Below, in pieces: positions 20,823-61,470 of a stretch of DNA of 64,000 bases (positions within the stretch are counted from its first letter, which is position 1; every line of letters starts with the position of its first letter). The position numbers and the translations under genes are program-made. Under the pieces are notes generated by a model that searched no databases, was not told the origin of the DNA, and saw only the letters and a program-made list of their open reading frames with translations. The stretch is from Minisyncoccota bacterium (GTDB taxonomy: Bacteria > Patescibacteriota > Minisyncoccia > Phycocordibacterales > CSBR16-193). The DNA is taken from contig JBBDRA010000003.1 of NCBI GenBank assembly GCA_040905715.1, forward strand, positions 459,142 through 523,141, in the 5' to 3' direction.

Positions 20823-20849
20823 TTGACACAGGGCTCGAATGTGTATAAT
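20823..20849 (+). promoter_or_regulatory. putative sigma-70 promoter of the V/A-ATPase operon
   Basis: TTGACA at 20823..20828, a 15-nt spacer, and TATAAT at 20844..20849. The 5' UTR would be about 125 nt to the ATG at 20977. Confidence 0.4.
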
Positions 20850-20976
20850 AGGGGCACCTCAGCAAAGAGAAGATCTTTGTACTGCAGTATCATTTTCGAG
20901 CCAAGGAGACGAGCAAAGAATTAATCCCTTAAAGCTTGTTCAAAGGCTCTTTACTACAGCGTTTTATTTTCATTTT

Positions 20977-22791
20977 ATGACAACAGACGACACCACAACA
21001 CAGACAAAATCAGAGCAAGGAGTGATCGAAAGCATCAGCGGTCTTTTGATCAAGGCGAGCGGTATGGGACAGGCAAAAATGTATGAAGTTGTCTTTGTTT
21101 CCGGCGAAAAACTCATGGGTGAGGTTATTGAGCTTAACGGTGACGTAGCCTCCATTCAGGTATACGAAGATACGTCCGGCCTCACGCCGGGCGATATTGT
21201 TACCCGAACCGGCGAGACCATGTCAGCGGAACTCGCTCCTGGGCTCCTCGAATCAATTTACGACGGTATCCAGCGCCCACTAAAACTTATCGAGGAAAAG
21301 TCTGACAGTTTTTACATTCAGCGCGGTGTTAAGGCCGACGGTATCGACCGAGAGAAAAAGTGGGATTTTCAAGCACTTGCAAAAACCGGTGACACGGTAG
21401 TGACCGGTGACATTCTCGGAACGGTTGAAGAAACCTCACTTATCACCCACAAGATCATGGTGCCACCAGAATGCGACGGTATCGTTGAATCTGTTAAAAG
21501 CGGCTCATACACGGTCACCGATACGGTTGCCGTTATCAAAACAAAGGACGGCACAACAAAGGAAATACAGATGCTTCAGCGTTGGCCGATCCGCACACCA
21601 CGCGGAAAAAAAGGTAAGCTTTTTCCGAACACCCCACTGGCGACCGGTATCCGATCCGTCGACAGCCTCTTCCCCATTGCCAAAGGAGGTGCCGGCGCTG
21701 TTCCTGGGCCGTTCGGATCCGGCAAGACCGTTATCCAGCAATCACTGGCCAAGTACTGTGACGCACAGGTTATCGTCTACATTGGATGCGGAGAGCGCGG
21801 TAACGAGATGACCGAAGTGCTCAATGAATTCCCTGAGCTTCTCGACCCGAACACCGGTGAACCGCTTATTAAGCGCACTGTTCTTATCGCCAACACATCG
21901 AACATGCCGGTAGCAGCTCGTGAAGCATCTATTTACACCGGCGTTACCATCGCTGAATACTATCGTGACATGGGATACTCCGTTGCGCTTATGGCCGATT
22001 CAACATCCCGTTGGGCGGAAGCAATGCGTGAGATCTCCGGACGCCTCGAAGAAATGCCGGGTGAAGAAGGATATCCGGCCTATCTTGCATCAAAAACCTC
22101 CGCTTTCTATGAGCGTGCGGGGTATGTTGAGTGCCTCGGCTCAGACGACCGCACCGGCGCACTTACTATCATTGGCGCCGTATCACCTCCGGGAGGAGAC
22201 CTCTCCGAGCCGGTCTCACAGGCAACACTTCGTGTTACCAAAACATTCTGGGGTCTCGACGCAGCACTTGCCTACAAGAAACACTTCCCGACCATTAACT
22301 GGCTCAACTCGTACAGTCTATATGTCGACAACTTCCGAGCTTTCTGGAAAGAAAATGTCGGAGAGGATTTCGAGCAGATCCGTGAAGATGTCATGACGCT
22401 TCTATCAGAAGAGGATCGTTTGAACGAGATCGTTCGTCTTGTCGGCATGGAGGCACTTGCTGACGGCGAAAAGATCATCCTTGAGATCGCTCGATCGATC
22501 CGGGAAGACTTCCTTTTCCAAAACGCTTTTGACGAATACGATGCATACACTCCACTACAAAAACAATACGAAATACTAAAATCAATAGTATCGGTATATC
22601 AAAATGCAAAAGACGCTTCGAGTGCTGAGGAATTTGAATTTGAATCATTCGCTCAACTTCCGGTCGTAAAAGAACTAGCCAATCTTAAAAATTATGACGT
22701 TGATAAACCTGAGTTATTTGAACAATTCCGTGAGCAAGCTGAACGAGAGATCCAAAACCTTATCAGCGTACCGGCTAACATAACCGCCTAA
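20977..22791 (+). CDS. atpA: V/A-type ATP synthase catalytic subunit A
   Basis: Walker A GPFGSGKTV; strong overall similarity to NtpA/AtpA. Start set at the Met after the promoter, because ORF 20839 runs through the promoter. Confidence 0.9.
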   Translation: MTTDDTTTQTKSEQGVIESISGLLIKASGMGQAKMYEVVFVSGEKLMGEVIELNGDVASIQVYEDTSGLTPGDIVTRTGETMSAELAPGLLESIYDGIQRPLKLIEEKSDSFYIQRGVKADGIDREKKWDFQALAKTGDTVVTGDILGTVEETSLITHKIMVPPECDGIVESVKSGSYTVTDTVAVIKTKDGTTKEIQMLQRWPIRTPRGKKGKLFPNTPLATGIRSVDSLFPIAKGGAGAVPGPFGSGKTVIQQSLAKYCDAQVIVYIGCGERGNEMTEVLNEFPELLDPNTGEPLIKRTVLIANTSNMPVAAREASIYTGVTIAEYYRDMGYSVALMADSTSRWAEAMREISGRLEEMPGEEGYPAYLASKTSAFYERAGYVECLGSDDRTGALTIIGAVSPPGGDLSEPVSQATLRVTKTFWGLDAALAYKKHFPTINWLNSYSLYVDNFRAFWKENVGEDFEQIREDVMTLLSEEDRLNEIVRLVGMEALADGEKIILEIARSIREDFLFQNAFDEYDAYTPLQKQYEILKSIVSVYQNAKDASSAEEFEFESFAQLPVVKELANLKNYDVDKPELFEQFREQAEREIQNLISVPANITA

Positions 22792-22801
22792 CTAGAAATC
22801 T

Positions 22802-24208
22802 ATGCCGCAGCAACAACACAAAGAATACAAAACAGTAGATACCGTCGCCGGTCCGCTCATTACCGTTATCGATATCGAAGGTGTTTCATACGATGAACTG
22901 GTTGAGGTGCAGGTTCCGGGAGAAAGCAAAGTACGAAAAGGAAAAGTGCTGACTGCTTCACGAGATAAAGCTGTCGTTCAGCTATTCGAGCCAAACTACG
23001 GAATGCAGGTCGAAGATACGAAAGTACGCTTCACCGGCGAAGTAGCAACAATGGGTCTGTCTAAGTCAATGCTCGGCCGTACCTTCTCCGGAGGTGGCGA
23101 CGTTATTGATGACGGTCCGGCCATCATTCCGGAAACAAAGCGCCCGATCGAAGGGTCTCCTATCAATCCATGGAGCCGACAATTCCCGGACGACTTCATC
23201 CAGACCGGTATCTCCTCGATCGACGTAATGAACACACTTGTTCGTGGACAGAAGCTTCCGATCTTCTCCGCTTCCGGACTACCGCACGGCAAGCTTGCCG
23301 CTCAAATTGCTCGACAGGCGAAAGTGACTACGGGAGAGGACTTCGCTATTGTCTTCGGAACCATGGGTGTGACCTTTGAAGAAGCTGACTATTTCCGCCA
23401 AGAATTTGAAGAGACCGGCGCGATCGAGCGAAGTGTTCTTCTTCTGAACACAGCTGCCGACCCGGTAGTTGAGCGCATCTCAACTCCGCGCATCGCACTG
23501 ACCACTGCTGAGTATCTTGCCTTTGAGCACGGTATGCACGTACTGGTCATTTTAACCGACATGACAAACTACTGTGACGCGCTTCGTGAGGTATCCAGCG
23601 CCCGCAAAGAGATCCCGGGGCGACGTGGGTATCCGGGTTATATGTACACTGACCTTGCCGGTCTCTACGAGCGAGCAGGTCGAGTTAAAGGTAAAGAAGG
23701 TTCTATCACCCAGATACCGATCCTCTCGATGCCGGATGACGATAAGACTCATCCAATTCCCGACCTTACCGGCTACATTACTGAGGGACAATTCATTATC
23801 TCGCGGGAACTTAGTGCTAAAGGTATCTTCCCGCCGGTTGATGTGCAGGACTCGCTCTCACGACTCTGGTCAGCCGGTGTAGGTGAAGGTAAAACACGCG
23901 AAGAGCACAAGGATGTGAAGGACCAGCTATTTGCGTCCTACGCGACCGGACGTGAAGCACGCGAACTTGCCGTAGTGCTCGGTGAAAGTTCCCTCTCTGA
24001 AAGCGACCAAGCACATCTCAAGTTTGCCGAGGCGTTTGAAAAGGAATTTATTAACCAAGGCGAGTTTGAAGACCGAGACGTTGTCGACTCACTTGATCTA
24101 GGCTGGAAACTCTTAACGCTCGTCCCACGCGACTCACTCAAGCGCGTAAAACCGGATACCGTAGAAAAGTATCTCCCTAAAGAAAAATTTGAGATAAAAA
24201 GTTCATAG
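22802..24208 (+). CDS. atpB: V/A-type ATP synthase subunit B
   Basis: 468 aa regulatory-subunit homolog ([29 protein letters not shown]). Confidence 0.9.
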
Positions 24209-24222
24209 CACACCGCTAACCT

Positions 24223-24846
24223 ATGCTGAAAGTTAATCCCACACGTGTTAATCTCCTTGCCCTTAAGAAGCGGTTAAAAACCGCTAAAAAAGGTCATAAA
24301 CTTCTGAAAGACAAGCGCGACGGCCTTATCCAGAAGTTCATGCAGATCATCAAAGAAACACGTGAACTTCGCAGTCAGGTCGATCAAGAGCTCGGCGAGG
24401 CCTTGCACACCTACGTTCGTGGATCATCAATGATCAACAAAAAAGTTATCGATGTCGCTTTTATGGTCCCTGCAGCAAATGTCTCCCTGGAGGTCGCGAC
24501 CGAATCGGTCATGGCGGTACGTATCCCCCGTTTTTCTATCCAGAAGGAAGGTAACGGCTTTTCGTACGGATTTCTTGAGACAAATGGTGACATCGATACC
24601 GCTATCAACAAGATCGATACCATCTTCCCGAACCTGGTCAAGCTTGCGGAGTTAGAGAAAACAATAGAAAACTTAGCCGACGAGATCGAGAAGACCCGCC
24701 GACGCACAAATGCTCTTGAGAACGTTATGATCCCGAACCTGAATACCACGATCCGCTACATCAATAGCCGGCTTGAAGAACAGCAACGGGATGCCGTGAT
24801 CTCAAGCATGAAGATCAAGGAGATGATCATGGAACGTGGCGATTAG
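24223..24846 (+). CDS. atpD: V/A-type ATP synthase subunit D
   Basis: MLKVNPTRVNLLALKKRLKTAKKGHKLLKDKRD is the canonical subunit D N-terminus. Confidence 0.85.
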   Translation: MLKVNPTRVNLLALKKRLKTAKKGHKLLKDKRDGLIQKFMQIIKETRELRSQVDQELGEALHTYVRGSSMINKKVIDVAFMVPAANVSLEVATESVMAVRIPRFSIQKEGNGFSYGFLETNGDIDTAINKIDTIFPNLVKLAELEKTIENLADEIEKTRRRTNALENVMIPNLNTTIRYINSRLEEQQRDAVISSMKIKEMIMERGD

Positions 24847-24882
24847 CCAGAAGTATATTATGTAGTCAACTTTATTTCGATC

Positions 24883-25194
24883 ATGGAAACGATACAAACA
24901 ATTTTAAACACCGAGCAGGAAGCGAAACAGCTTCTTGAAAAGGCACGACACGAACGAGGCCAGAAACTTGAGCGAGCGCACGCAAAAGCCCGTGAGGAAC
25001 TAGAGAAATACCGCGAAGAACTTGCCCGAGAATATGATGACGCCCTTGCCACAGTAGAAAAAGAAGCGGAGACAACCAAGAAAAAGGTTCTTGAAGAACA
25101 AAAAAAAGAACAGGCAGCTATTGAAAACAAAGCTCGAGGCAATCACAGTAAAGCAATAAACCAACTTTTAGACACACTTGTACTGAGTAAATAA
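24883..25194 (+). CDS. small coiled-coil protein, probable V/A-ATPase peripheral-stalk subunit (G/H-like)
   Basis: 103 aa all-helical K/E-rich protein between D and I, in the position of the stator G/H subunits. The antisense ORF 24858..25142 is rejected. Confidence 0.4.
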   Translation: METIQTILNTEQEAKQLLEKARHERGQKLERAHAKAREELEKYREELAREYDDALATVEKEAETTKKKVLEEQKKEQAAIENKARGNHSKAINQLLDTLVLSK

Positions 25195-25224
25195 ACCACA
25201 TTTACCTAGCTACCAACCACTCTT

Positions 25225-27712
<2,488 letters not shown>

Positions 27713-50616: not shown

Positions 50617-51201
50617 TTACGCTTTCTTTTCTTCTGCCTGTTCAGTATCTGACTTTTCCTCTGTCCCGACGCTTTCAGGTCGGGACTCCGACTCGTCTTG
50701 CGACGTCGGAGCCGGAGCCTCCTCTTCCTTGGAAGCTTCTGCTTCTGCTGGAGCTTCTTCCTTCACCTCTTCAGTAGCTGGCTCCTCTTTCTTTTCCTCT
50801 TCAGCTGGCTCCTCTTTTACTTCTTCTTTTTCCTCTACCTTGGGTGCTTGTGCTTCAGGTTCACCAGCAGGCTCAGATTCAGATGAAGCCTCCTCTTTCT
50901 TTTCTCCTTCAGGCTCATCCTTCACCAGTGGAGTTTTCTTAGGAAGCACGTTCTTCTTTCCGCCCTTCACAAGACCAAGGTCGACGAACAAGTTATAGAC
51001 GGTGCCGGAGGCCTGTGCTCCATTTGAAAGCCAGTATGAAGCTCGCTCAGAATCAATAACGGGAGCGTCCTTACGTGGATCATACGAACCAAGTATCTCA
51101 ACCACACGACCGCTCTTCGGGCTCTGATGAGAATCCTGAACAACAACCCGGTGAGCCGGGATGCCTTTGCGTCCAATGCGTTGTAAGCGAATCGATAACA
51201 T
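50617..51201 (-). CDS. rpsP: 30S ribosomal protein S16 with a roughly 110-aa Glu/Lys/Ala/Pro-rich C-terminal tail
   Basis: MLSIRLQRIGRKGIPAHRVVVQDS...GSYDP is a canonical bS16 N-terminus. Start set at the internal Met. The tail is low-complexity (EEKKEEPATEEVKEEAPAEAEA...). Confidence 0.8.
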   Translation of the reverse strand: MLSIRLQRIGRKGIPAHRVVVQDSHQSPKSGRVVEILGSYDPRKDAPVIDSERASYWLSNGAQASGTVYNLFVDLGLVKGGKKNVLPKKTPLVKDEPEGEKKEEASSESEPAGEPEAQAPKVEEKEEVKEEPAEEEKKEEPATEEVKEEAPAEAEASKEEEAPAPTSQDESESRPESVGTEEKSDTEQAEEKKA

Positions 51202-51269
51202 GCGGGCAATACTAACAAAAAGCCCGGAAAGCGTCAAACATATTGTAAGTGTCGCCATCCTAAAGTTAT

Positions 51270-53385: not shown

Positions 53386-54234
53386 CTATACAGTAAAGAC
53401 ATCAAGATCCTTGCCATATTTTACCACCCCTTTGTAGTTCTTCTTTATTTCTTTTACTAATCCTGTAGCAGAAACATGCCGATGGATCTGATGGACTAAA
53501 ACAAGCTTTTTAGGATTGGTCTGTGAAGCGATCTCAGCAAGTTCAGAGGAAGAAGTGTGAAAATTTCTCATGTATTTTTCCCAGTTTTTATCTTTACCGT
53601 ACTCCGTATCAGACGCAACTTCGTGGATCATTAAGTCCGCGTCTTTTCCTTCCCGGACAACATTCTTGTGAGGCTTCGTGTCCCCGGAGATAACGATCTT
53701 CTTTGAACCAACAGTGATCGTAAAACCGTATGCATGCTTCCAGCTCCCGTGCTTTACCCGAAACGCCTTTACTGCTATCTGTTCATCCTTGTAAATCACA
53801 CCATTTGAAAACTCAGTGACTGTTGTTTTATATCCGGTCGTATCCCCTTTCTCCAGACCGGTTGTTCGCACATGAACATCCTCCTCATACGCTTTTTGAA
53901 TATTACGAACCATTGCCTTTGTCCCCGGAGGACCGAAGATGTTAAACGGTACACTTCTTCCCATTACCCATGGTGTATAGATCGCGTCCGGTAGTCCAAG
54001 TGTATGGTCACTATGTAAATGAGTAAAAAATAGAGTACAAAGATCTCGCTGAGCTATAGCGTCGTTTTTAGTCGAATTGATATACTCCTGCAATCGACGA
54101 ACAACTCCCGGCCCGGCATCAATGACGTACAGAGATGAATTAACAATAATTGCGATAGACGGGCCGCTTCGTTCAGGATCAGGGAACGGATAGCCGGTTC
54201 CAAGAAGTACTACTTTAACAGTATTTTTTGCCAT
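53386..54234 (-). CDS. metallo-beta-lactamase-fold hydrolase (RNase Z / sulfatase-like)
   Basis: HLHSDH zinc motif, a downstream D/H ligand, and an N-terminal LLGTGYPFPDP. Confidence 0.6.
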   Translation of the reverse strand: MAKNTVKVVLLGTGYPFPDPERSGPSIAIIVNSSLYVIDAGPGVVRRLQEYINSTKNDAIAQRDLCTLFFTHLHSDHTLGLPDAIYTPWVMGRSVPFNIFGPPGTKAMVRNIQKAYEEDVHVRTTGLEKGDTTGYKTTVTEFSNGVIYKDEQIAVKAFRVKHGSWKHAYGFTITVGSKKIVISGDTKPHKNVVREGKDADLMIHEVASDTEYGKDKNWEKYMRNFHTSSSELAEIASQTNPKKLVLVHQIHRHVSATGLVKEIKKNYKGVVKYGKDLDVFTV

Positions 54235-54428: not shown

Positions 54429-55034
54429 ATGGAATTCAGAATCCGAGTTTGCAGGCATGGTCATTCTCCCCACGAAGGAAATGACGCGGCTCGCGGTCTT
54501 GACGACCTCGGTCGTCAACAGATCCGGGACACGGCGCAAAACCGATTTCCCAAGACTGTCGAACCAATTTTGGTTTTGACGAGTCGCAAGGAGCGAGCAC
54601 GCGAGACGCTGGAGATCTTGCTTCGGGAGACCGGCAACGAGAAACTGATCCCGGAGATCATACCGCTTCACGGTCTGGACTACTCCTGGCCGATGGCAAA
54701 CGGAGGTGTCACTAACTTCATGTACGGCCCCGAGCACGACAACGTGCTCACTGTCAGCCAGATCATGAAAAATCATCCCGAGTTCACCTCGCTCATTCGA
54801 GGCATGCTCTGGGGGTCGCTCATGACCGCGATCCGAATGCACCGGTACAGTTGGAAGGCGTACGCACCGGATGAGATCTGGGTCGCCAGCCATTCGCCCT
54901 TCGGCGAATTTCTGACTCCGGATCCTGTCAGCACCACGCGGCGCCCGAACGGCGGCGGCTTTACCTTCATCCTCGACATCCCTCGTGATGAAGAGGAAGG
55001 AGTGGTCACCGGCCATTCTCTGGAACTGTTTTGA
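54429..55034 (+). CDS. histidine phosphatase superfamily protein (SixA/phosphoglycerate-mutase-like)
   Basis: RHGHS catalytic His motif at the N-terminus. AGGAGA SD 8 nt upstream. The upstream part of ORF 54228 is non-coding read-through. Confidence 0.6.
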   Translation: MEFRIRVCRHGHSPHEGNDAARGLDDLGRQQIRDTAQNRFPKTVEPILVLTSRKERARETLEILLRETGNEKLIPEIIPLHGLDYSWPMANGGVTNFMYGPEHDNVLTVSQIMKNHPEFTSLIRGMLWGSLMTAIRMHRYSWKAYAPDEIWVASHSPFGEFLTPDPVSTTRRPNGGGFTFILDIPRDEEEGVVTGHSLELF

Positions 55035-55044
55035 TTTGCTTTTT

Positions 55045-55090
55045 TCGTGACCCGTAGCCCGACACCCTTGTGGTGCCGGGCTTTTTTATT
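55045..55090. terminator. bidirectional terminator
   Basis: GCCCGACACC-CTTGTGG-TGCCGGGC followed by TTTTTTA, between convergent genes. Confidence 0.6.
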
Positions 55091-56594
55091 GTGAACTGAC
55101 AACGGTTATGGTTCCGGCCTCAGTATCTACTTCGATCTCATCGCCGTCTTTTATTTTAGATGTGGCATTTTGCACACCAACCAAACAAGGTATCTGCAGT
55201 TCTCTCGAGACAATTGCCGCGTGAGACAACAGCCCGCCCAGCTCGGCAATGATCGCCTTAGAGCGCTTCATGGCAGGGAGTAAATCGGGGTATGTTCGTG
55301 AAGATACAAGGATGTCTCCCTCGTTTACCTTATCCATCTGACCCACATCCTGAACCAAACGCGCGATACCGATAACTTTTCCTTTGCTATACGCGATCTC
55401 TCCCTGCATAGGCGTATCATCAGCAACAATAATCTTATTTAGCTCATGTTCTATCTCCTTCGCCTCAGAGCCTGTGTAGAAAGTCGGTTCTTCGTTCTCG
55501 AGAACACACACCGTGAGCTCCATCCTATCTCTAATTACATCTTTAGAAACTTTGCTTCTTTTCATCAGATTATCCTTAAGTTCCTCAGGCCATAGGTACT
55601 TTGCCTCAGTCTCGGATACAGCCAGTCGTTTCCCAAACTCTTCAAATACCCCACGACGCAGATACAGAAACCTCATCGTCTCATCGACAAGTACGCTCCC
55701 GACCTCAGCGCTCTTTGTAGCAAACGTGATCACTCTCTGTTGGTCAGGATCAGCTTTTTCCATAACTCCTTCGAACACCCGTTGTCGTTCATCTTTTTTC
55801 TCTTGCTTGTCCTCTTCTCGCTCCTTGAGAATACGCTCTAAGTCCGAACCAAAAGATAGCAGATCGTTTATATCTCTGATGATCGTCTCTACGGATTTAG
55901 GAGGATTAGTTAAGCTTGCGTCAAGCCAGCCGTAGGAATCTTGAATTTCATGAATTTTTTCTTTTATCTCCGGATTTTTACCCAACACATCTTCATTCAA
56001 CTCAGAGATGCTCTCCTTGCCGGCTTTCCGCGCTACCTCACTGATCGCGTTGTCGTACTCTATTACTCCGAGCTTTCGGGTTGTTCGAAAAAGGATCGGC
56101 GCGATTGCGTGAGGTGAAAAGCCAATATCCTTTAACGTTTTCTCGAGTGTTTTGTGGATGAGATTCGTTCCATAATTGATCGTTATTATGTCAGCCACCT
56201 GCATGCCGTTCGTTTTTTCAAACCCGATAATAGAATCAAGAGCTATACAAAGTGAACGATTAGTTAATTGCTCAAAGTTGAGCTTTTTATGAGCCGAATT
56301 AAGTGCCTCTATATACTCAAGCCACTCGTTCATTCTTCCCTCCCAATCTTCTATACGCTCGTCACTAGCGAGCGTATAATCTAATACCTTCTGCCCGGCA
56401 TCAAACCACTTGTCCTTTTCAATGAATAATTTATAAGAGCCCTCATGAAAGATGAGAACCATTGACCCCTGATCCTGAACTCCGAACTCAGGTCGTTGCG
56501 TGAGCATCATATGACCAAGGTTTACGAACACCACATCCATAGGGTGTCCGCCGGGCACATGCTCTAGGAACATATATTTTTCAGCTTTTTCCAT
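55086..56594 (-). CDS. PEP-utilizing-enzyme swivel (phosphohistidine) domain protein, paralog C
   Basis: C-terminal 90 aa with ELGGLLSHAAIVSRELQIPCLVG is the PEP-utilizers mobile domain carrying the catalytic His. The N-terminal roughly 400 aa are not recognised. The start lies 2 nt after the paralog B stop. Confidence 0.6.
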   Translation of the reverse strand: MEKAEKYMFLEHVPGGHPMDVVFVNLGHMMLTQRPEFGVQDQGSMVLIFHEGSYKLFIEKDKWFDAGQKVLDYTLASDERIEDWEGRMNEWLEYIEALNSAHKKLNFEQLTNRSLCIALDSIIGFEKTNGMQVADIITINYGTNLIHKTLEKTLKDIGFSPHAIAPILFRTTRKLGVIEYDNAISEVARKAGKESISELNEDVLGKNPEIKEKIHEIQDSYGWLDASLTNPPKSVETIIRDINDLLSFGSDLERILKEREEDKQEKKDERQRVFEGVMEKADPDQQRVITFATKSAEVGSVLVDETMRFLYLRRGVFEEFGKRLAVSETEAKYLWPEELKDNLMKRSKVSKDVIRDRMELTVCVLENEEPTFYTGSEAKEIEHELNKIIVADDTPMQGEIAYSKGKVIGIARLVQDVGQMDKVNEGDILVSSRTYPDLLPAMKRSKAIIAELGGLLSHAAIVSRELQIPCLVGVQNATSKIKDGDEIEVDTEAGTITVVSSQ

Positions 56595-56596
56595 AG

Positions 56597-57901
56597 CTAC
56601 GTGTTTAGTATTCTAACCACCCCCTCATCCGCATCCACCTCTACTTCATCGCCGTCTTTGAGGATTTGTGTGGCGTGTTGCGTACCAATCACACACGGCT
56701 TATTCATTTCTCTTGATACAATAGCTGCGTGAGAAGTAATACCACCGATATCAGTCACGAATGCCGCTGCTTTTGCCATTCCACTAAGAAAGTCCGGGGT
56801 GGACATTGTAGCCACCAGAATATCCCCTTTTTCAATTTTTGAACACTCCTTTGGACTTAACACTACCCTTACCTTACCTCGAACCTTCCCTTTATTCGCG
56901 ATCTGCCCTTTTATTTCTTTAACTTCTTCGTTTCTCTCTTCTTCCTTATTCTGTTTATCCTCGCTCTTCAGTTCAACTCCCTGGTCAGTTATCTCAAGTA
57001 TAAATGATTCTCTCTCATAGAACACTGAGCGTGATGGAAATTCTTTTTTAAACAGATCAACAACATCTTTCATACGCAGACTAAGAAGATCATCGTAGTG
57101 AACGATATCAGAATAGTGATCAATGACCATTTTCCTAAAAAGATACGTTCCATAACACATAGTCTCCCACTTTTCAGTTCGAAGTCGCATCAAACTTTCA
57201 AGATAGCGTGCATACTGGGAATCAACGGTTTGTTGATCATTGCCTTGATGATCGTCAGAGCTCGAAAGGTCCACAGCCATCTGGTACGCTTCCCAAATAC
57301 ACCATGACCTGCCTTGAAAATACTTCATCCCTAAATATCCATACCGGTCTATCACTTTCTGTAGTTCACTCACCATCTCTTCGCTAACGGACAAATCGTA
57401 GGCATTATACTTTTTCCCTATTTCCGCCAATTCTTTAGCTGCCCTAGAAATATCGGTTTCAGATCCTGCAACCTGGCTTGGAGAAAAACCTTCATCTTCT
57501 AGCTTCTGACCAAGCTGAATTTCAAAAATAAAACGAGGAATCGTGCCGGCAGCCTGAATCGAACGTTGGAAGTACTCATCAACAAGACCGGGGGCGACGT
57601 GAGACTTTTCTATTTTTTCTTTAAAGGTCTTTAGGTATGAGCGATATTCGGAAAGTGATCGCTCAAAATACTTGATGAGCTGTTCGTACTGATCGTCAAT
57701 TAGATGATTTTTTTCAACGTACTCAAGCCTATCTTTGGACCACTGTATATCACCGGTTGAATGGATATACCGCAAGTATGGATAATCGAACGGATAACCA
57801 AACTCCTTAAAATTAGAGTGATACCGAATACCGCTAAGGATCAGGTCTTGCGTCAAAAGATCTGATCGATGATTAACAAGTGTTTTCCATTCCTTTTGCA
57901 T
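56597..57901 (-). CDS. PEP-utilizing-enzyme swivel domain protein, paralog B
   Basis: C-terminal DIGGITSHAAIVSREMNKPCVIGTQ...ILKDGDEVEVDADEGVVR. Start set at Met54 of ORF 58060, which overlaps the upstream stop by 1 nt; the track's upstream extension is out-of-frame read-through of paralog A's C-terminus. Confidence 0.55.
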   Translation of the reverse strand: MQKEWKTLVNHRSDLLTQDLILSGIRYHSNFKEFGYPFDYPYLRYIHSTGDIQWSKDRLEYVEKNHLIDDQYEQLIKYFERSLSEYRSYLKTFKEKIEKSHVAPGLVDEYFQRSIQAAGTIPRFIFEIQLGQKLEDEGFSPSQVAGSETDISRAAKELAEIGKKYNAYDLSVSEEMVSELQKVIDRYGYLGMKYFQGRSWCIWEAYQMAVDLSSSDDHQGNDQQTVDSQYARYLESLMRLRTEKWETMCYGTYLFRKMVIDHYSDIVHYDDLLSLRMKDVVDLFKKEFPSRSVFYERESFILEITDQGVELKSEDKQNKEEERNEEVKEIKGQIANKGKVRGKVRVVLSPKECSKIEKGDILVATMSTPDFLSGMAKAAAFVTDIGGITSHAAIVSREMNKPCVIGTQHATQILKDGDEVEVDADEGVVRILNT

Positions 57902-57902
57902 A

Positions 57903-59921
57903 CTAGTTTTTAGATATTTTCCTGACCACTCCTTTGTCCGCATCCACCTCCACCTCGTCACCGTCTTTGAGGATTTGTGTGGCGTGTTTGGTGCCGATAA
58001 TGCATGGTTTTTGCATCTCCCGAGCCACAATAGCAGCGTGGCAAGTAATCCCACCCTCATCAGTCACAAAGGCAGAAGCATTTTTCATGTACTGAACTAT
58101 CTCAGGCCGAGTCATAGGGGTAACTAAGACATAATCTTTTTGACCACCCAGAACCTTACCAGCATTGCCGTAATCAAGCGCACTTAACACAATAACTTTC
58201 CCTGACACCTTTCCTGCTGTTGCTGAAACGCCCGAGATAGAAGAAGCGTTCTCAGTTCCCGGTTTATTTTGCTCCTTTAGATAGTTTTCTATTTCTGTAA
58301 ACTCCTCTTGATCAGTAACGTAAGAAACCTCACCGTTAGCAAAGACAATTGCTATTTTTCTATCTTTATCGATATCTACTTGCTTGCCTGACAAAATATC
58401 TTCTATTTCAAGAGGCGTTGCTTTGGTAATCACATCCTCAGGAATAGAATGTTTCTCAGATGCCTTGGTTAATATTTTATACAAAAGAGGAAAAACATCG
58501 TTAACAACGAACTCTGATACCTCTAATCGGATCTCCGGCAACCCTTTTAGGAGTTGTTCGTCATTCGTTTCAAAGTTTTCATCCGCAAAAAAGCTATAGG
58601 GTTTATATAGGATGGTTATTTTTCCTATAAGTTCTTTAAACGTATCTAGCTCAAGAAAATCATCAACTTTATTTTTTTCTATGTATTCTTTCAGCTCACG
58701 ATAAGATTCGAGGCAGTCATTACTAATTTTCTTAATAGTTTCCGTATCTTTAACTATTACTTTTTTTGTTTCATCGATCCAAACATCAACACCTTCGTTT
58801 AACATGAAGATCAATCCGGGGCCTTCCCCGTTCTGTAAATACGGGTTGTCTACATACCGATTGGCCGGTGGGCCGAAATAGGCCGCTGGAAACATCGGGT
58901 ACTGAGAACGAAGAGTAAAGTCATGCTTTTTTATGGAATCTATAGTTTTCTGTAATTCTGGCTGTCCCGCTGTCAACGTTGTGATCGGCCTACTTTGGAC
59001 AATATAGAACTCGCCGTTTTCAAACGCCCACTCAATATCACACGGGAACCCGTAGTGATCTTCGACGCGCAAAATAAGCTCCGAGAGCTCGGTAACCTGA
59101 TCTTCCACCAGAACCTGTGAAGACGCAACGGGTTCACTAATGTCTTTCCATTCATTGCCGCCGTCATCTACTCGGTACAGCCCTCTTGTCTGGGTTGAGA
59201 TGTTAACATCGATGATCCTTCTTGGCTTCTTTTCTACCACGTAACTATCAGGTGTAACTGAACCGGAAACAATCGCCTCGCCGAGTCCGAAGCCGGCCTC
59301 GATAATAAACTGGTTATAATCCTGAGTAACCGGATGGACCGAGAAAGCAATGCCCGAGCACTCTGAGTTGACCATTTTCTGCACCACCACCGCCACGGAT
59401 ACTTTGCGCGTATGCGTATCATCGCCAAAGCGTTCGAAGCGATAAAAGATAGCGCGAGGCGTAAAAAGAGACGCCCAACAGTTGCGAACGTTCTCAAGCA
59501 GCGTATCCCGATTTGTGTTAAGAAAACTATCCAGCTGTCCGGCCCAGGCATCGCTCGATGAGTCCTCGGCGGTGGCTGACGAACGAACCGCCACAAAATC
59601 CGCACCGAGTTTGTCGAATTCAGAGAGAATCTCCTCGCGCAGATCATCCGGCATTTCCCGCTCTTTGATCAGCCCCTGTATCTGCTCGGAAGCATTTTCA
59701 ACAGTGTGCATTACCTGCGGATCAACTTCGTGAAGAATATTGTCGATCTCGACATTGATATCAGTCTCCTCGATAAAACGCTCAAACGCATCAGCAAGCA
59801 CCACGAAACCGGGCGGTACCGGAATACCCGCCTGTGTCATCTCGCCGAGCGACGCGCCTTTCCCGCCCGCTTTATCGACACTGCCTTTGTTTAGCTCACT
59901 AAACGGCGCTGTGTGGGTCAT
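57903..59921 (-). CDS. PEP synthase / rifampin-phosphotransferase-like protein: N-terminal PPDK_N ATP-grasp domain plus C-terminal phosphohistidine swivel domain, no PEP-binding TIM barrel (paralog A)
   Basis: N-terminus GGKGASLGEM...AGIPVPPGFVV is the PPDK_N nucleotide-binding signature. C-terminus DEGGITCHAAIVAREMQKPCIIGTK. The middle roughly 250 aa are unassigned. Confidence 0.7.
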   Translation of the reverse strand: MTHTAPFSELNKGSVDKAGGKGASLGEMTQAGIPVPPGFVVLADAFERFIEETDINVEIDNILHEVDPQVMHTVENASEQIQGLIKEREMPDDLREEILSEFDKLGADFVAVRSSATAEDSSSDAWAGQLDSFLNTNRDTLLENVRNCWASLFTPRAIFYRFERFGDDTHTRKVSVAVVVQKMVNSECSGIAFSVHPVTQDYNQFIIEAGFGLGEAIVSGSVTPDSYVVEKKPRRIIDVNISTQTRGLYRVDDGGNEWKDISEPVASSQVLVEDQVTELSELILRVEDHYGFPCDIEWAFENGEFYIVQSRPITTLTAGQPELQKTIDSIKKHDFTLRSQYPMFPAAYFGPPANRYVDNPYLQNGEGPGLIFMLNEGVDVWIDETKKVIVKDTETIKKISNDCLESYRELKEYIEKNKVDDFLELDTFKELIGKITILYKPYSFFADENFETNDEQLLKGLPEIRLEVSEFVVNDVFPLLYKILTKASEKHSIPEDVITKATPLEIEDILSGKQVDIDKDRKIAIVFANGEVSYVTDQEEFTEIENYLKEQNKPGTENASSISGVSATAGKVSGKVIVLSALDYGNAGKVLGGQKDYVLVTPMTRPEIVQYMKNASAFVTDEGGITCHAAIVAREMQKPCIIGTKHATQILKDGDEVEVDADKGVVRKISKN

Positions 59922-60066
59922 TACTGCTATTAAACCACAATAAAGCTAGTACCGCAAAAAAAACGCAACCCCAGGAGTCGTGTTGTCTTTTTTCAATACT
60001 ACTAAGATTTCTGAGCTACGACACAGAAAGTTCAGAAAATTCAGAGTTTTCAGTATTACCTAATTC

Positions 60067-61470
60067 TTATTCTCCACCTTCCTCCGTCTCAAATTGCTTT
60101 TTAATTCGCTCTAGATCCTCTTCGGTTATATTGAGCTGCTCGAGTACCCAGACATGTCGTAGATTTGTCGGATCATATTTGCCGATCATGACTCGTTTCA
60201 TTTCATCTGAGCCTTGCTTAACAAGATCCCAGACGCCGATATTTCCCTCCCGGTACACAATGTCTTTCGTAAAGCATGCACCGGGCGTCGCGCATGTAGA
60301 CCCACGAAATGTCCTCACTGTTCGTTTCCACGCAAGCTCACTTGCTTTTGCATCTAGTGCTTCTCCCTCACCGCTCGAAGTAAGCATAAAATACTGCTTG
60401 AGAACTTCAAACGTCTGTCGAAAATCCCGTGGCGTACCGTCCATACCTTTGGCAAGAGATATAGCCAAATGCCCCGTCAAACCGGCAAAGTCATCAGCTC
60501 CCTCGATCTTTTGTTGCTCATACGTGGCTACTCCTTCTTCTCCTTTCACGTATCGGTCAAACCCGAGTCCGAGTAGCCGAATGCGTGATTGTTCCCCGTA
60601 ATCTCTTCGCCGAGCGTGCGTACCGATCTCGTGCGCTGCCAGCGCCTCAATGGACGTTTTCGTAAGCGGAATACTTCGCTGCTCCAACTTCTGTTCTGAA
60701 GGAATGTTCACTGTCCGCGTCTCTTGGCTCACACTTAAACCGCTTCTGCTCCCGGATTCGTCAACAACTACATCCCAGTTATGTAACCCGTATGAACGAA
60801 GCGCTTCTTCAAAATATTCACGAACCTCTTCAGCGGAAGTGATCGTTTCAGTTTCCTTTGGACTATCCGGGAGATCATCTGCCGAAAAGGCAAGGGTGTC
60901 AGACGCTCCGGCTTGTTCCCACGAGATCAGTAATTCAAGTTTTCGAGCAGCGTCACGCTTTTGTTCATTATCACTCTGTTTATACGATTCAATTTTGTCG
61001 CGCACCTGCGTAAGCGTGTATGTGAATATCTCTGGAGAAGGTTCCCCATAGATAAAATCCGAGTAACGCATAAAACGATTATCATCACCCTCTTGTGCCG
61101 CTTTCAACATACGAAGCTTTGCTAATTCTTCATTAACACGCCATCGGTAGAGCTGGCGAACGATATCATTCTCTTCTTCCTCCAACACATCACCTTTCAG
61201 TTCCACGAGTTTTTGCTCCCGTCCCTCAAAATCAAAATCCTCAAGTTTTGGATAGTCGAGCGTTGGATTACCCTCACCGACTGAAAGAAACCGCTCCTTT
61301 TCATGTTCACGCTTTTCGCTATCGCCATGAAGATATTCATAATCATCAAAACACGTTTCTTGAAATCTCTCATACCATTTATCATCAAGCTGCTCCCAGT
61401 TACCGGACTTAGAAGGACCTTGTTCTGCAGGTTCATTATGCTCTGATCCGGGAAATTTTTCTGATTCCAT
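60067..61470 (-). CDS. DUF1704-like putative metallopeptidase (HExxH; QEGLA-like motif)
   Basis: HEIGTH zinc-binding-like motif and GEEGVATYEQ resembling the QEGLA motif of the DUF1704/MATCAP family; acidic N-terminal region. Confidence 0.45.
   Translation of the reverse strand: MESEKFPGSEHNEPAEQGPSKSGNWEQLDDKWYERFQETCFDDYEYLHGDSEKREHEKERFLSVGEGNPTLDYPKLEDFDFEGREQKLVELKGDVLEEEENDIVRQLYRWRVNEELAKLRMLKAAQEGDDNRFMRYSDFIYGEPSPEIFTYTLTQVRDKIESYKQSDNEQKRDAARKLELLISWEQAGASDTLAFSADDLPDSPKETETITSAEEVREYFEEALRSYGLHNWDVVVDESGSRSGLSVSQETRTVNIPSEQKLEQRSIPLTKTSIEALAAHEIGTHARRRDYGEQSRIRLLGLGFDRYVKGEEGVATYEQQKIEGADDFAGLTGHLAISLAKGMDGTPRDFRQTFEVLKQYFMLTSSGEGEALDAKASELAWKRTVRTFRGSTCATPGACFTKDIVYREGNIGVWDLVKQGSDEMKRVMIGKYDPTNLRHVWVLEQLNITEEDLERIKKQFETEEGGE

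Follow-up and report, generated by a model that had tools for sequence, protein, structure and literature searches.

In dikinases of the phosphoenolpyruvate (PEP) synthase and rifampin phosphotransferase (RPH) kind, one swivelling phosphohistidine domain shuttles between two active sites. Here we analysed three abutting genes, designated A, B and C, on the minus strand of a window of 64,000 nucleotides (the whole stretch of DNA under analysis, positions 459,142 to 523,141 of contig JBBDRA010000003.1) from a Minisyncoccota bacterium. As judged from their sequences, they probably formed a small-molecule dikinase of the RPH/PpsAB/HpeHI type, split into parts and with more than one acceptor, in which one ATP-grasp domain was shared by the three proteins. 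The closest described systems were the two-component dikinases, namely HpeHI of Rhodococcus, CreHI of Corynebacterium and the phenylphosphate synthase PpsAB of Thauera/Aromatoleum. In these enzymes the His of the swivel is charged by a separate ATP-grasp protein, after which the swivel hands the phosphate to the substrate held by the acceptor domain of the swivel's own chain (PMC12167813). Another described protein was VadK (Rv1127c) of Mycobacterium tuberculosis, an autokinase derived from pyruvate phosphate dikinase (PPDK) that consists of a grasp and a swivel, autophosphorylates on His and lacks the PEP/pyruvate domain (PMC13400623).

All three genes encoded proteins that carried a PEP-utilizers swivel domain at the C-terminus, and the catalytic His of this domain was intact in each. 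The initial annotation of this DNA, made from the letters alone, had described the genes as closely abutting, and indeed the gap was 1 nt between A and B and 2 nt between B and C. The start of B was placed at the ATG agreeing with the starts of its orthologues (434 aa); a 487-aa version beginning at 58060 was unsupported by the alignment. The genes and their domains were the following:

57903-59921, minus strand: gene A, 672 aa, with ATP-grasp, short acceptor (X) domain and His swivel (open reading frame list, Pfam)
58944-59921, minus strand: A residues 1-326, PPDK_N ATP-grasp (nucleotide-binding) domain
58242-58943, minus strand: A residues 327-560, short-class acceptor (X) domain
57906-58241, minus strand: A residues 561-672, phosphohistidine swivel domain, His628 codon at 58038-58040
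56597-57901, minus strand: gene B, 434 aa, with long-class acceptor domain and swivel
56915-57901, minus strand: B residues 1-329, long-class acceptor domain
56600-56914, minus strand: B residues 330-434, swivel, His391 codon at 56729-56731
55086-56594, minus strand: gene C, 502 aa, with long-class acceptor domain and swivel
55407-56594, minus strand: C residues 1-396, long-class acceptor domain
55089-55406, minus strand: C residues 397-502, swivel, His458 codon at 55221-55223

In Pfam searches, the PPDK_N domain was found at residues 16-326 of A (E 5e-95) and was absent from B and C. The PEP-utilizers domain was found in all three proteins, at residues 594-664 of A (E 1e-25), 356-427 of B (E 2e-26) and 424-494 of C (E 4e-24). 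The PEP/pyruvate TIM barrel (PEP-utilizers_C) had no Pfam match in A, B or C at E <= 0.1. Thus, the initial picture of three paralogs that shared a swivel, possessed a single ATP-grasp and lacked the PEP/pyruvate barrel was confirmed, and a tblastn search of the whole window located exactly three swivel domains and one ATP-grasp. The grasp of A carried the GGKGASLGEM and VAVRSSATAEDS motifs. A GGxxxH-type swivel motif with the catalytic His was present in each protein, as GGITCHAAIVARE (GGITCH628AAIVARE) in A, GGITSHAAIVSRE (GGITSH391AAIVSRE) in B and GGLLSHAAIVSRE (GGLLSH458AAIVSRE) in C. The motif had earlier been given as an intact SHAAIV[SA]RE in all three; the catalytic His was intact throughout, but A read CHAAIV instead of SHAAIV. 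The swivels of A and B were 59% identical, and both retained the Thr of the GGxT[SC]HAAI motif, which is a regulatory site in PEP synthase and PPDK (PMC12167813). The corresponding motif of C was the RPH-like GGLLSH.

The N-terminal regions of B and C had been regarded as unrelated to each other and unrecognised, and this description did not hold. Profile-profile comparison aligned residues 128-433 of B with residues 148-500 of C (probability 99.9%, 295 columns), intermediate paralogues in other loci connected the cassette families at 30-32% identity over 280-370 residues, and the family profile of C aligned by sequence with residues 701-867 of RPH, extending past the swivel. Moreover, both N-terminal domains matched the rifampin-binding domain of RPH by fold in predicted structures. 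These models identify the N-terminal parts of both proteins as RPH-type acceptor domains and not as novel folds, and according to the alignments the cassettes of A, B and C are homologous beyond the swivel. B and C could therefore be considered as RPH minus the ATP-grasp. Full-length orthologues, 35-49% identical for B and 41-65% for C, were found in several lineages belonging to the Candidate Phyla Radiation (CPR) and DPANN, and many residues of the N-terminal domains were invariant among them.

Each family also had an invariant basic residue located 150-164 residues upstream of the catalytic His, namely R465 in A, R241-T242..E246 in B and K294-S295..E297 in C, and R241 of B had as its aligned counterpart in further cassette families the Arg of a motif [LM]R[ED]. 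In RPH, the essential Arg666-Glu667 is found 159 residues upstream of His825 (PMC4844700). The position of A R465, B R241 and C K294 fits this site, and they may be its equivalents.

Gene A had the order of grasp, middle domain and swivel, which upheld the earlier view that its architecture was like that of RPH and not that of PEP synthase. By sequence, its grasp and swivel were nearest to PEP synthase (PDB 8a8e, E 5e-88) and less close to RPH (E 1.5e-71), and A missed the cut-offs of all curated NCBIfam families. It scored 422 bits against the PEP synthase/PPDK model NF005057 (cut-off 598). Rifampin phosphotransferase proper was defined by the curated equivalog models NF041857 and NF000283, and against the former A scored 329 bits (cut-off 999), B 67 bits and C 78 bits. 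The initial suggestion of an antibiotic-like (rifamycin) substrate by analogy with RPH was not supported by the score of A, and a role in rifamycin resistance would be an analogy only. The stand-alone ATP-grasp proteins of three other loci (L003, L005 and L006; 321-327 aa) were 63-72% identical to residues 1-320 of A. The X domain of A (residues 327-560) clustered with 38 relatives, in which Arg465 of an LPE.R motif was invariant, and it aligned by profile to the B cassette over 319 columns, minus an insert of about 80 aa that was helical in the model of B.

The arrangement of these domains in relatives was also compared, and the comparison covered 13 loci. L006 had a C-type gene, 65% identical to C, with a grasp-only gene 9 nt upstream of it. 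The distance between genes of these two kinds was about 800 nt in L005, whereas three cassette genes followed a grasp-only gene in L003. A stand-alone grasp has no swivel of its own to charge in cis and therefore, if functional, must act in trans. In L012 (Woesearchaeota), a grasp was found directly before a B-type cassette. When 1.84 billion representative proteins were searched with a profile of the B-type acceptor domain alone, no more than 49 relatives were retrieved. Among these 49, five were proteins of 719-764 aa with the domain at about residues 306-646, and in all three that were scanned with Pfam it was located between PPDK_N and a swivel, as expected of single-chain RPH-like enzymes. 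In addition, 92 of the 120 best relatives of A were chains of 930-1170 aa with two intact His swivel motifs, in the order grasp, X1, swivel, X2, swivel (two swivel stretches were confirmed by Pfam in seven of seven checked). The X domains fell into at least 14 sequence families of two size classes, and the families occurred in either order in the chain, which pointed to shuffling of the cassettes. Loci with one grasp carried from one to six swivel cassettes, and two grasps were never seen. The ratios of grasp to swivel domains were the following:

Window, 1:3
L001, 1:3
L003, 1:4
L007, 1:4
L008 (Kaiserbacteria), 1:6
L009 (a Diapherotrites archaeon), 1:3
L011, 1:4

The proteins encoded by A, B and C were 100% identical to NCBI entries of a Candidatus Paceibacterota (CPR) metagenome-assembled genome (MAG). 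Matches with a named source came from the CPR groups Paceibacterota, Andersenbacteria, Kaiserbacteria, Moranbacteria, Staskawiczbacteria and Parcubacteria and from the DPANN groups Woesearchaeota and Diapherotrites, and the sole label outside CPR and DPANN was that of a Gammaproteobacteria MAG. As far as can be read from these genes, the modular layout is widespread in CPR and DPANN organisms. The exceptional contig, L011 (CAYGHM010000002.1, labelled 'uncultured Gammaproteobacteria bacterium'), encoded one grasp and four cassettes that were 55-65% identical to CPR proteins; this may reflect mis-binning or horizontal transfer.

Given which domains were present, how B and C were folded, and the patterns of homology, conservation and fusion, the following mechanism could be proposed. 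The N-terminal ATP-grasp of A would bind ATP and pass its beta-phosphate on to a swivel's catalytic His with release of AMP and Pi, a chemistry that is established for RPH, PEP synthase and PpsAB and presumed for A. Charging would take place in cis on the swivel of A and in trans on those of B and C. Once phosphorylated on its His, each swivel would go back to the acceptor domain within the same chain and phosphorylate the substrate, presumably a small molecule, bound there. The three acceptor domains belonged to three sequence families, and therefore a single ATP site would drive the phosphorylation of three different substrates by the products of the operon. Charging of B and C by the grasp of A had been proposed in the initial annotation, and it gained strong backing from the stand-alone grasps next to C-type genes, the fusions of grasp, B-type domain and swivel, and the two-swivel fusions, all of which suggest that such a transfer is likely. 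The tight gene spacing and the hairpins that bracketed the gene unit also spoke for this reading.

In comparison with HpeHI, CreHI and PpsAB, the proteins B and C had the architecture of the H component (an acceptor domain and a swivel without a grasp), and stand-alone relatives of the A grasp resembling the I component existed in L003, L005 and L006. However, the grasp in the window was fused to a cassette, and it stood with three cassettes (up to six in relatives), in contrast to the one-to-one relation between the H and I components. Aromatic-catabolism genes (such as a carboxylase gene) were absent from its vicinity, where the neighbours were housekeeping genes and genes for a MATCAP-like peptidase, a metallo-beta-lactamase (MBL)-fold protein and a His_Phos_1 protein, and the hosts were CPR bacteria and DPANN archaea. 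Of the features by which Stogios et al. 2016 delineated the superfamily of RPH-type small-molecule dikinases, a PPDK_N grasp was found in A, a GGxxxH swivel in A, B and C, and an acceptor domain of the RPH fold in B and C. The superfamily also has a catalytic Arg-Glu (and Lys) in 'block 9' of the acceptor domain, to which the invariant residues at A R465, B R241 and C K294 may correspond, and the reaction ATP + substrate + H2O -> AMP + Pi + phospho-substrate, which would be that of the proposed mechanism. The likeness to RPH itself (PDB 5FBS/5HV1) was in the domain order of A and in the GGLLSH swivel motif of C. On the other hand, RPH consists of one chain and has one swivel, the identity between the acceptor domains was only 16%, and the acceptor domain of A had about 235 aa versus about 430 aa in RPH. 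PEP synthase and PPDK shared with our proteins the ATP-grasp and the swivel, including the Thr of GGxT[SC]HAAI in A and B, and were the best sequence matches, but A, B and C had no TIM barrel, their acceptor fold was different and the scores were below the cut-offs. VadK, by its description, is a single regulatory protein without an RPH-type acceptor domain or paralogous cassettes. Among other candidates considered, true RPH, PigC/RedH, PEP synthase and PPDK were rejected by NCBIfam scores far below the cut-offs, and enzyme I of the phosphotransferase system was rejected as the swivel was its only matching part. An anti-phage defence system was likewise rejected; in PADLOC neither A nor B, nor the phosphatase, nor the gene upstream matched anything, and C had one weak CorA-like match (E 0.004).

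A further gene was likely to belong to the system, and it was located convergently to C. This gene and the hairpins at both ends of the gene unit were as follows:

54429-55034, plus strand: gene of a His_Phos_1-fold protein, 201 aa, convergent, likely partner
55056-55082, no strand assigned: strong hairpin where C and the phosphatase gene converge, between their ends, -22.6 kcal/mol, z -4.6, followed by a U run on the plus strand
59966-59980, minus strand: weak terminator-like hairpin and T run between the MATCAP-like gene and A, from a consensus scan, marking the operon start

The hairpin at 59966-59980 was weak evidence because its fold was no better than that of shuffled sequences. The 201-aa protein had the motifs of branch 1 of the histidine phosphatase superfamily, namely RHG at residues 9-11, S52..R56 (SRKERARET) and SH at 154-155. 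Taken alone it remained below the Pfam His_Phos_1 cut-off (19.2 versus 21.7 bits), and the profile of its family matched His_Phos_1 members in the PDB (TIGAR-like, PGAM5, SixA) at E 2e-8 to 8e-6. It was 60% identical to the product of the gene at the same position in L006. Related His_Phos_1 genes flanked the cassettes in L001, L003, L006, L008 and L009, which together with the window made 6 of the 13 loci, and in L002 (7174-8889) an HD phosphohydrolase domain was fused behind the swivel instead. The stand-alone double-swivel genes of L013 and L014 had no His_Phos_1 neighbour. Thus, the association between phosphatase and cassettes was frequent but not universal. From the phosphatase side, two metagenome scans with the window-type protein gave no match. 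The convergent His_Phos_1 protein would either dephosphorylate the products or reset the phosphohistidine, as SixA does.

Several observations weighed against a multi-acceptor dikinase with a shared grasp. Gene A had its own swivel and acceptor domain, so that it could suffice for itself, and B and C could be charged by something else. Its short X domain was without the helical part of about 80 aa found in B, and C had Lys and not Arg at the putative acceptor-site position. The equivalence with the Arg/Glu site of RPH was derived from spacing and from profile alignments among these families, not from a direct alignment with RPH. The phosphatase neighbour was absent from 7 of the 13 loci. The Woesearchaeota contigs L002 and L004, both shorter than 10 kb, carried cassettes without a grasp, with three cassettes on one contig and at least one on the other. 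Finally, gene neighbourhoods across the 13 loci revealed no consistent pathway, with housekeeping genes in the window, dnaK-dnaJ in Woesearchaeota and mreBC-PBP2 in L014.

The same proteins might instead constitute a regulatory phosphorelay or protein kinase, where the phosphorylated His of the swivel would be the signal and not an intermediate of catalysis, the X domains would serve as sensors or in protein interactions, and the His_Phos_1 protein would be a SixA-like off-switch. VadK provided a precedent for this possibility, since it has a grasp and a swivel without a PEP domain, autophosphorylates and binds metabolic enzymes (PMC13400623). The phosphatase partner belonged to the superfamily that contains SixA and PGAM5, some cassettes were found within the dnaK-dnaJ operon of Woesearchaeota or within mreBC-PBP2 (L014), and the Thr kept by A and B is regulatory in PEP synthase and PPDK (PMC12167813). 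However, the X domains of B and C had the fold of a substrate-binding catalytic domain, the rifampin-binding domain of RPH, with invariant polar residues at the expected position of the acceptor site. The existence of at least 14 interchangeable X families fitted substrate diversification better than signalling, and a response regulator or an output domain was absent from every locus. We therefore considered the regulatory explanation unlikely.

We gave somewhat less credence still to the idea that A was a self-contained dikinase, and that B and C acted without it as ATP-independent transphosphorylases via the swivel His. It had been reported that HpeH alone moved a phosphoryl group from 4-phosphoacetophenone to acetovanillone (PMC12167813), A possessed a complete set of domains, and the grasp-less cassettes of L002 and L004 would agree with such a function. 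Opposed to it were the 1-2 nt distances that joined B and C to A, the fusion of B-type domains to a grasp, the two-swivel fusions and the pairing of C-type genes with grasp-only genes; moreover, one Woesearchaeota locus (L012) did have a grasp directly before its B-type cassette. The last alternative, that B and C were fragments or decayed duplicates of a disrupted ppsA/ppdK gene with the repeated swivels as artefacts, could draw on the fact that the best NCBIfam and PDB sequence matches were PEP synthases, all of them below the family cut-offs. Nevertheless, the reading frames and the catalytic His were intact in A, B and C, and the orthologues of B and C were conserved over their full length, including invariant N-terminal residues. 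Their N-terminal domains had the RPH acceptor fold, which is no part of PpsA, no remnant of PEP-utilizers_C was present, and nothing aligned with the PEP-binding half of PpsA. Hence the fragment scenario, which the initial annotation had named as the one that would overturn its proposal, failed when it was checked, and we regarded it as hardly credible. The split dikinase with a shared ATP-grasp was retained as the favoured explanation.

The surroundings of the operon in the window were those of a core chromosome, with rpoB, rpoC, dnaG, rpoD, hisS, the V/A-ATPase and trmD. The V/A-type ATPase (20839-27201, plus strand) included, according to Pfam, the A subunit at 20839-22791, the B subunit at 22802-24208 and the I subunit at 25225-27201. 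An open reading frame for an S16-like ribosomal protein (50617-51258, minus strand) had in its translation a C-terminal low-complexity tail of about 110 aa rich in Glu, Lys and Pro. The G+C content over gene B (window 56001-58000) was 0.427 versus 0.44-0.52 elsewhere in the window. Directly upstream of A, a gene similar to MATCAP/QEGLA-motif metallopeptidases was located at 60067-61470 on the minus strand (Pfam E 1e-23; TIGR02421 below cut-off), and it was not seen beside dikinase genes in the other loci. An MBL-fold protein was encoded next to the phosphatase gene at 53386-54234 on the minus strand; its best NCBIfam matches were GntH-like and RNase Z-like, all below cut-off. An MBL-fold gene (Lactamase_B_3) was also found just past the phosphatase gene of L006.

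Other loci had neighbourhoods of their own. In L002 (3246-8889) and L004 (6241-8695), dnaK was followed downstream by the swivel cassettes, which were accompanied by a nuclease-like gene of the YhcG/DUF1016 kind, and in L002 dnaJ came after the cassettes. The double-swivel dikinase gene of L014 (4790-11843, Parcubacteria) was placed between mreB-mreC, with an 87-aa open reading frame, and the gene of the PBP2 transpeptidase. In L007 (4572-13732), the A-type gene came after riboflavin genes (flavokinase, riboflavin synthase and lumazine synthase), and an open reading frame of 202 aa, which was not a histidine phosphatase, and an AbiEii gene separated it from three cassette genes. An orphan open reading frame of 75 aa in L003 (1731-1958) represented only the C-terminal part of a swivel; it adjoined a Fic gene about 4 kb from the dikinase cluster.

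In the limited set of papers searched, neither an enzyme nor an operon was described in which one ATP-grasp went with several swivel-acceptor cassettes, and a search for enzymes with at least two swivel domains likewise gave nothing. The initial annotation had regarded the arrangement as undescribed, and this was correct only in part, since the two-component dikinases PpsAB, CreHI and HpeHI were known (PMC12167813), as was the RPH superfamily; what is new here is the layout of one grasp to many cassettes. It is conceivable, although we propose it with more reservation than the split dikinase itself, that CPR and DPANN organisms have an undescribed modular class of 'multi-headed' dikinases. Such enzymes would combine one PEP-synthase-like grasp with interchangeable cassettes, two to six in number, each consisting of an RPH-fold acceptor domain and a phosphohistidine swivel. 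The cassettes, drawn from 14 or more acceptor families, would be fused or split and often coupled to a dedicated protein of the histidine phosphatase fold. The whole would give these ultra-small symbionts a general means for the ATP-driven capture, activation or detoxification of scavenged small molecules.

These genes are now annotated as 'PEP synthase/PPDK' or 'PEP-utilizing enzyme', which misleads the metabolic reconstruction of CPR and DPANN organisms. If our reading is true, dikinases would be wired in a new manner, with a single ATP site that serves several cassettes in trans as well as in cis, and the natural shuffling of cassettes could be copied for enzyme engineering. The metabolism of CPR and DPANN organisms is poorly understood, and they rely on scavenged metabolites. 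The substrates of these enzymes, once known, could show which compounds such organisms obtain from a host, or by what means they withstand those that a host makes.

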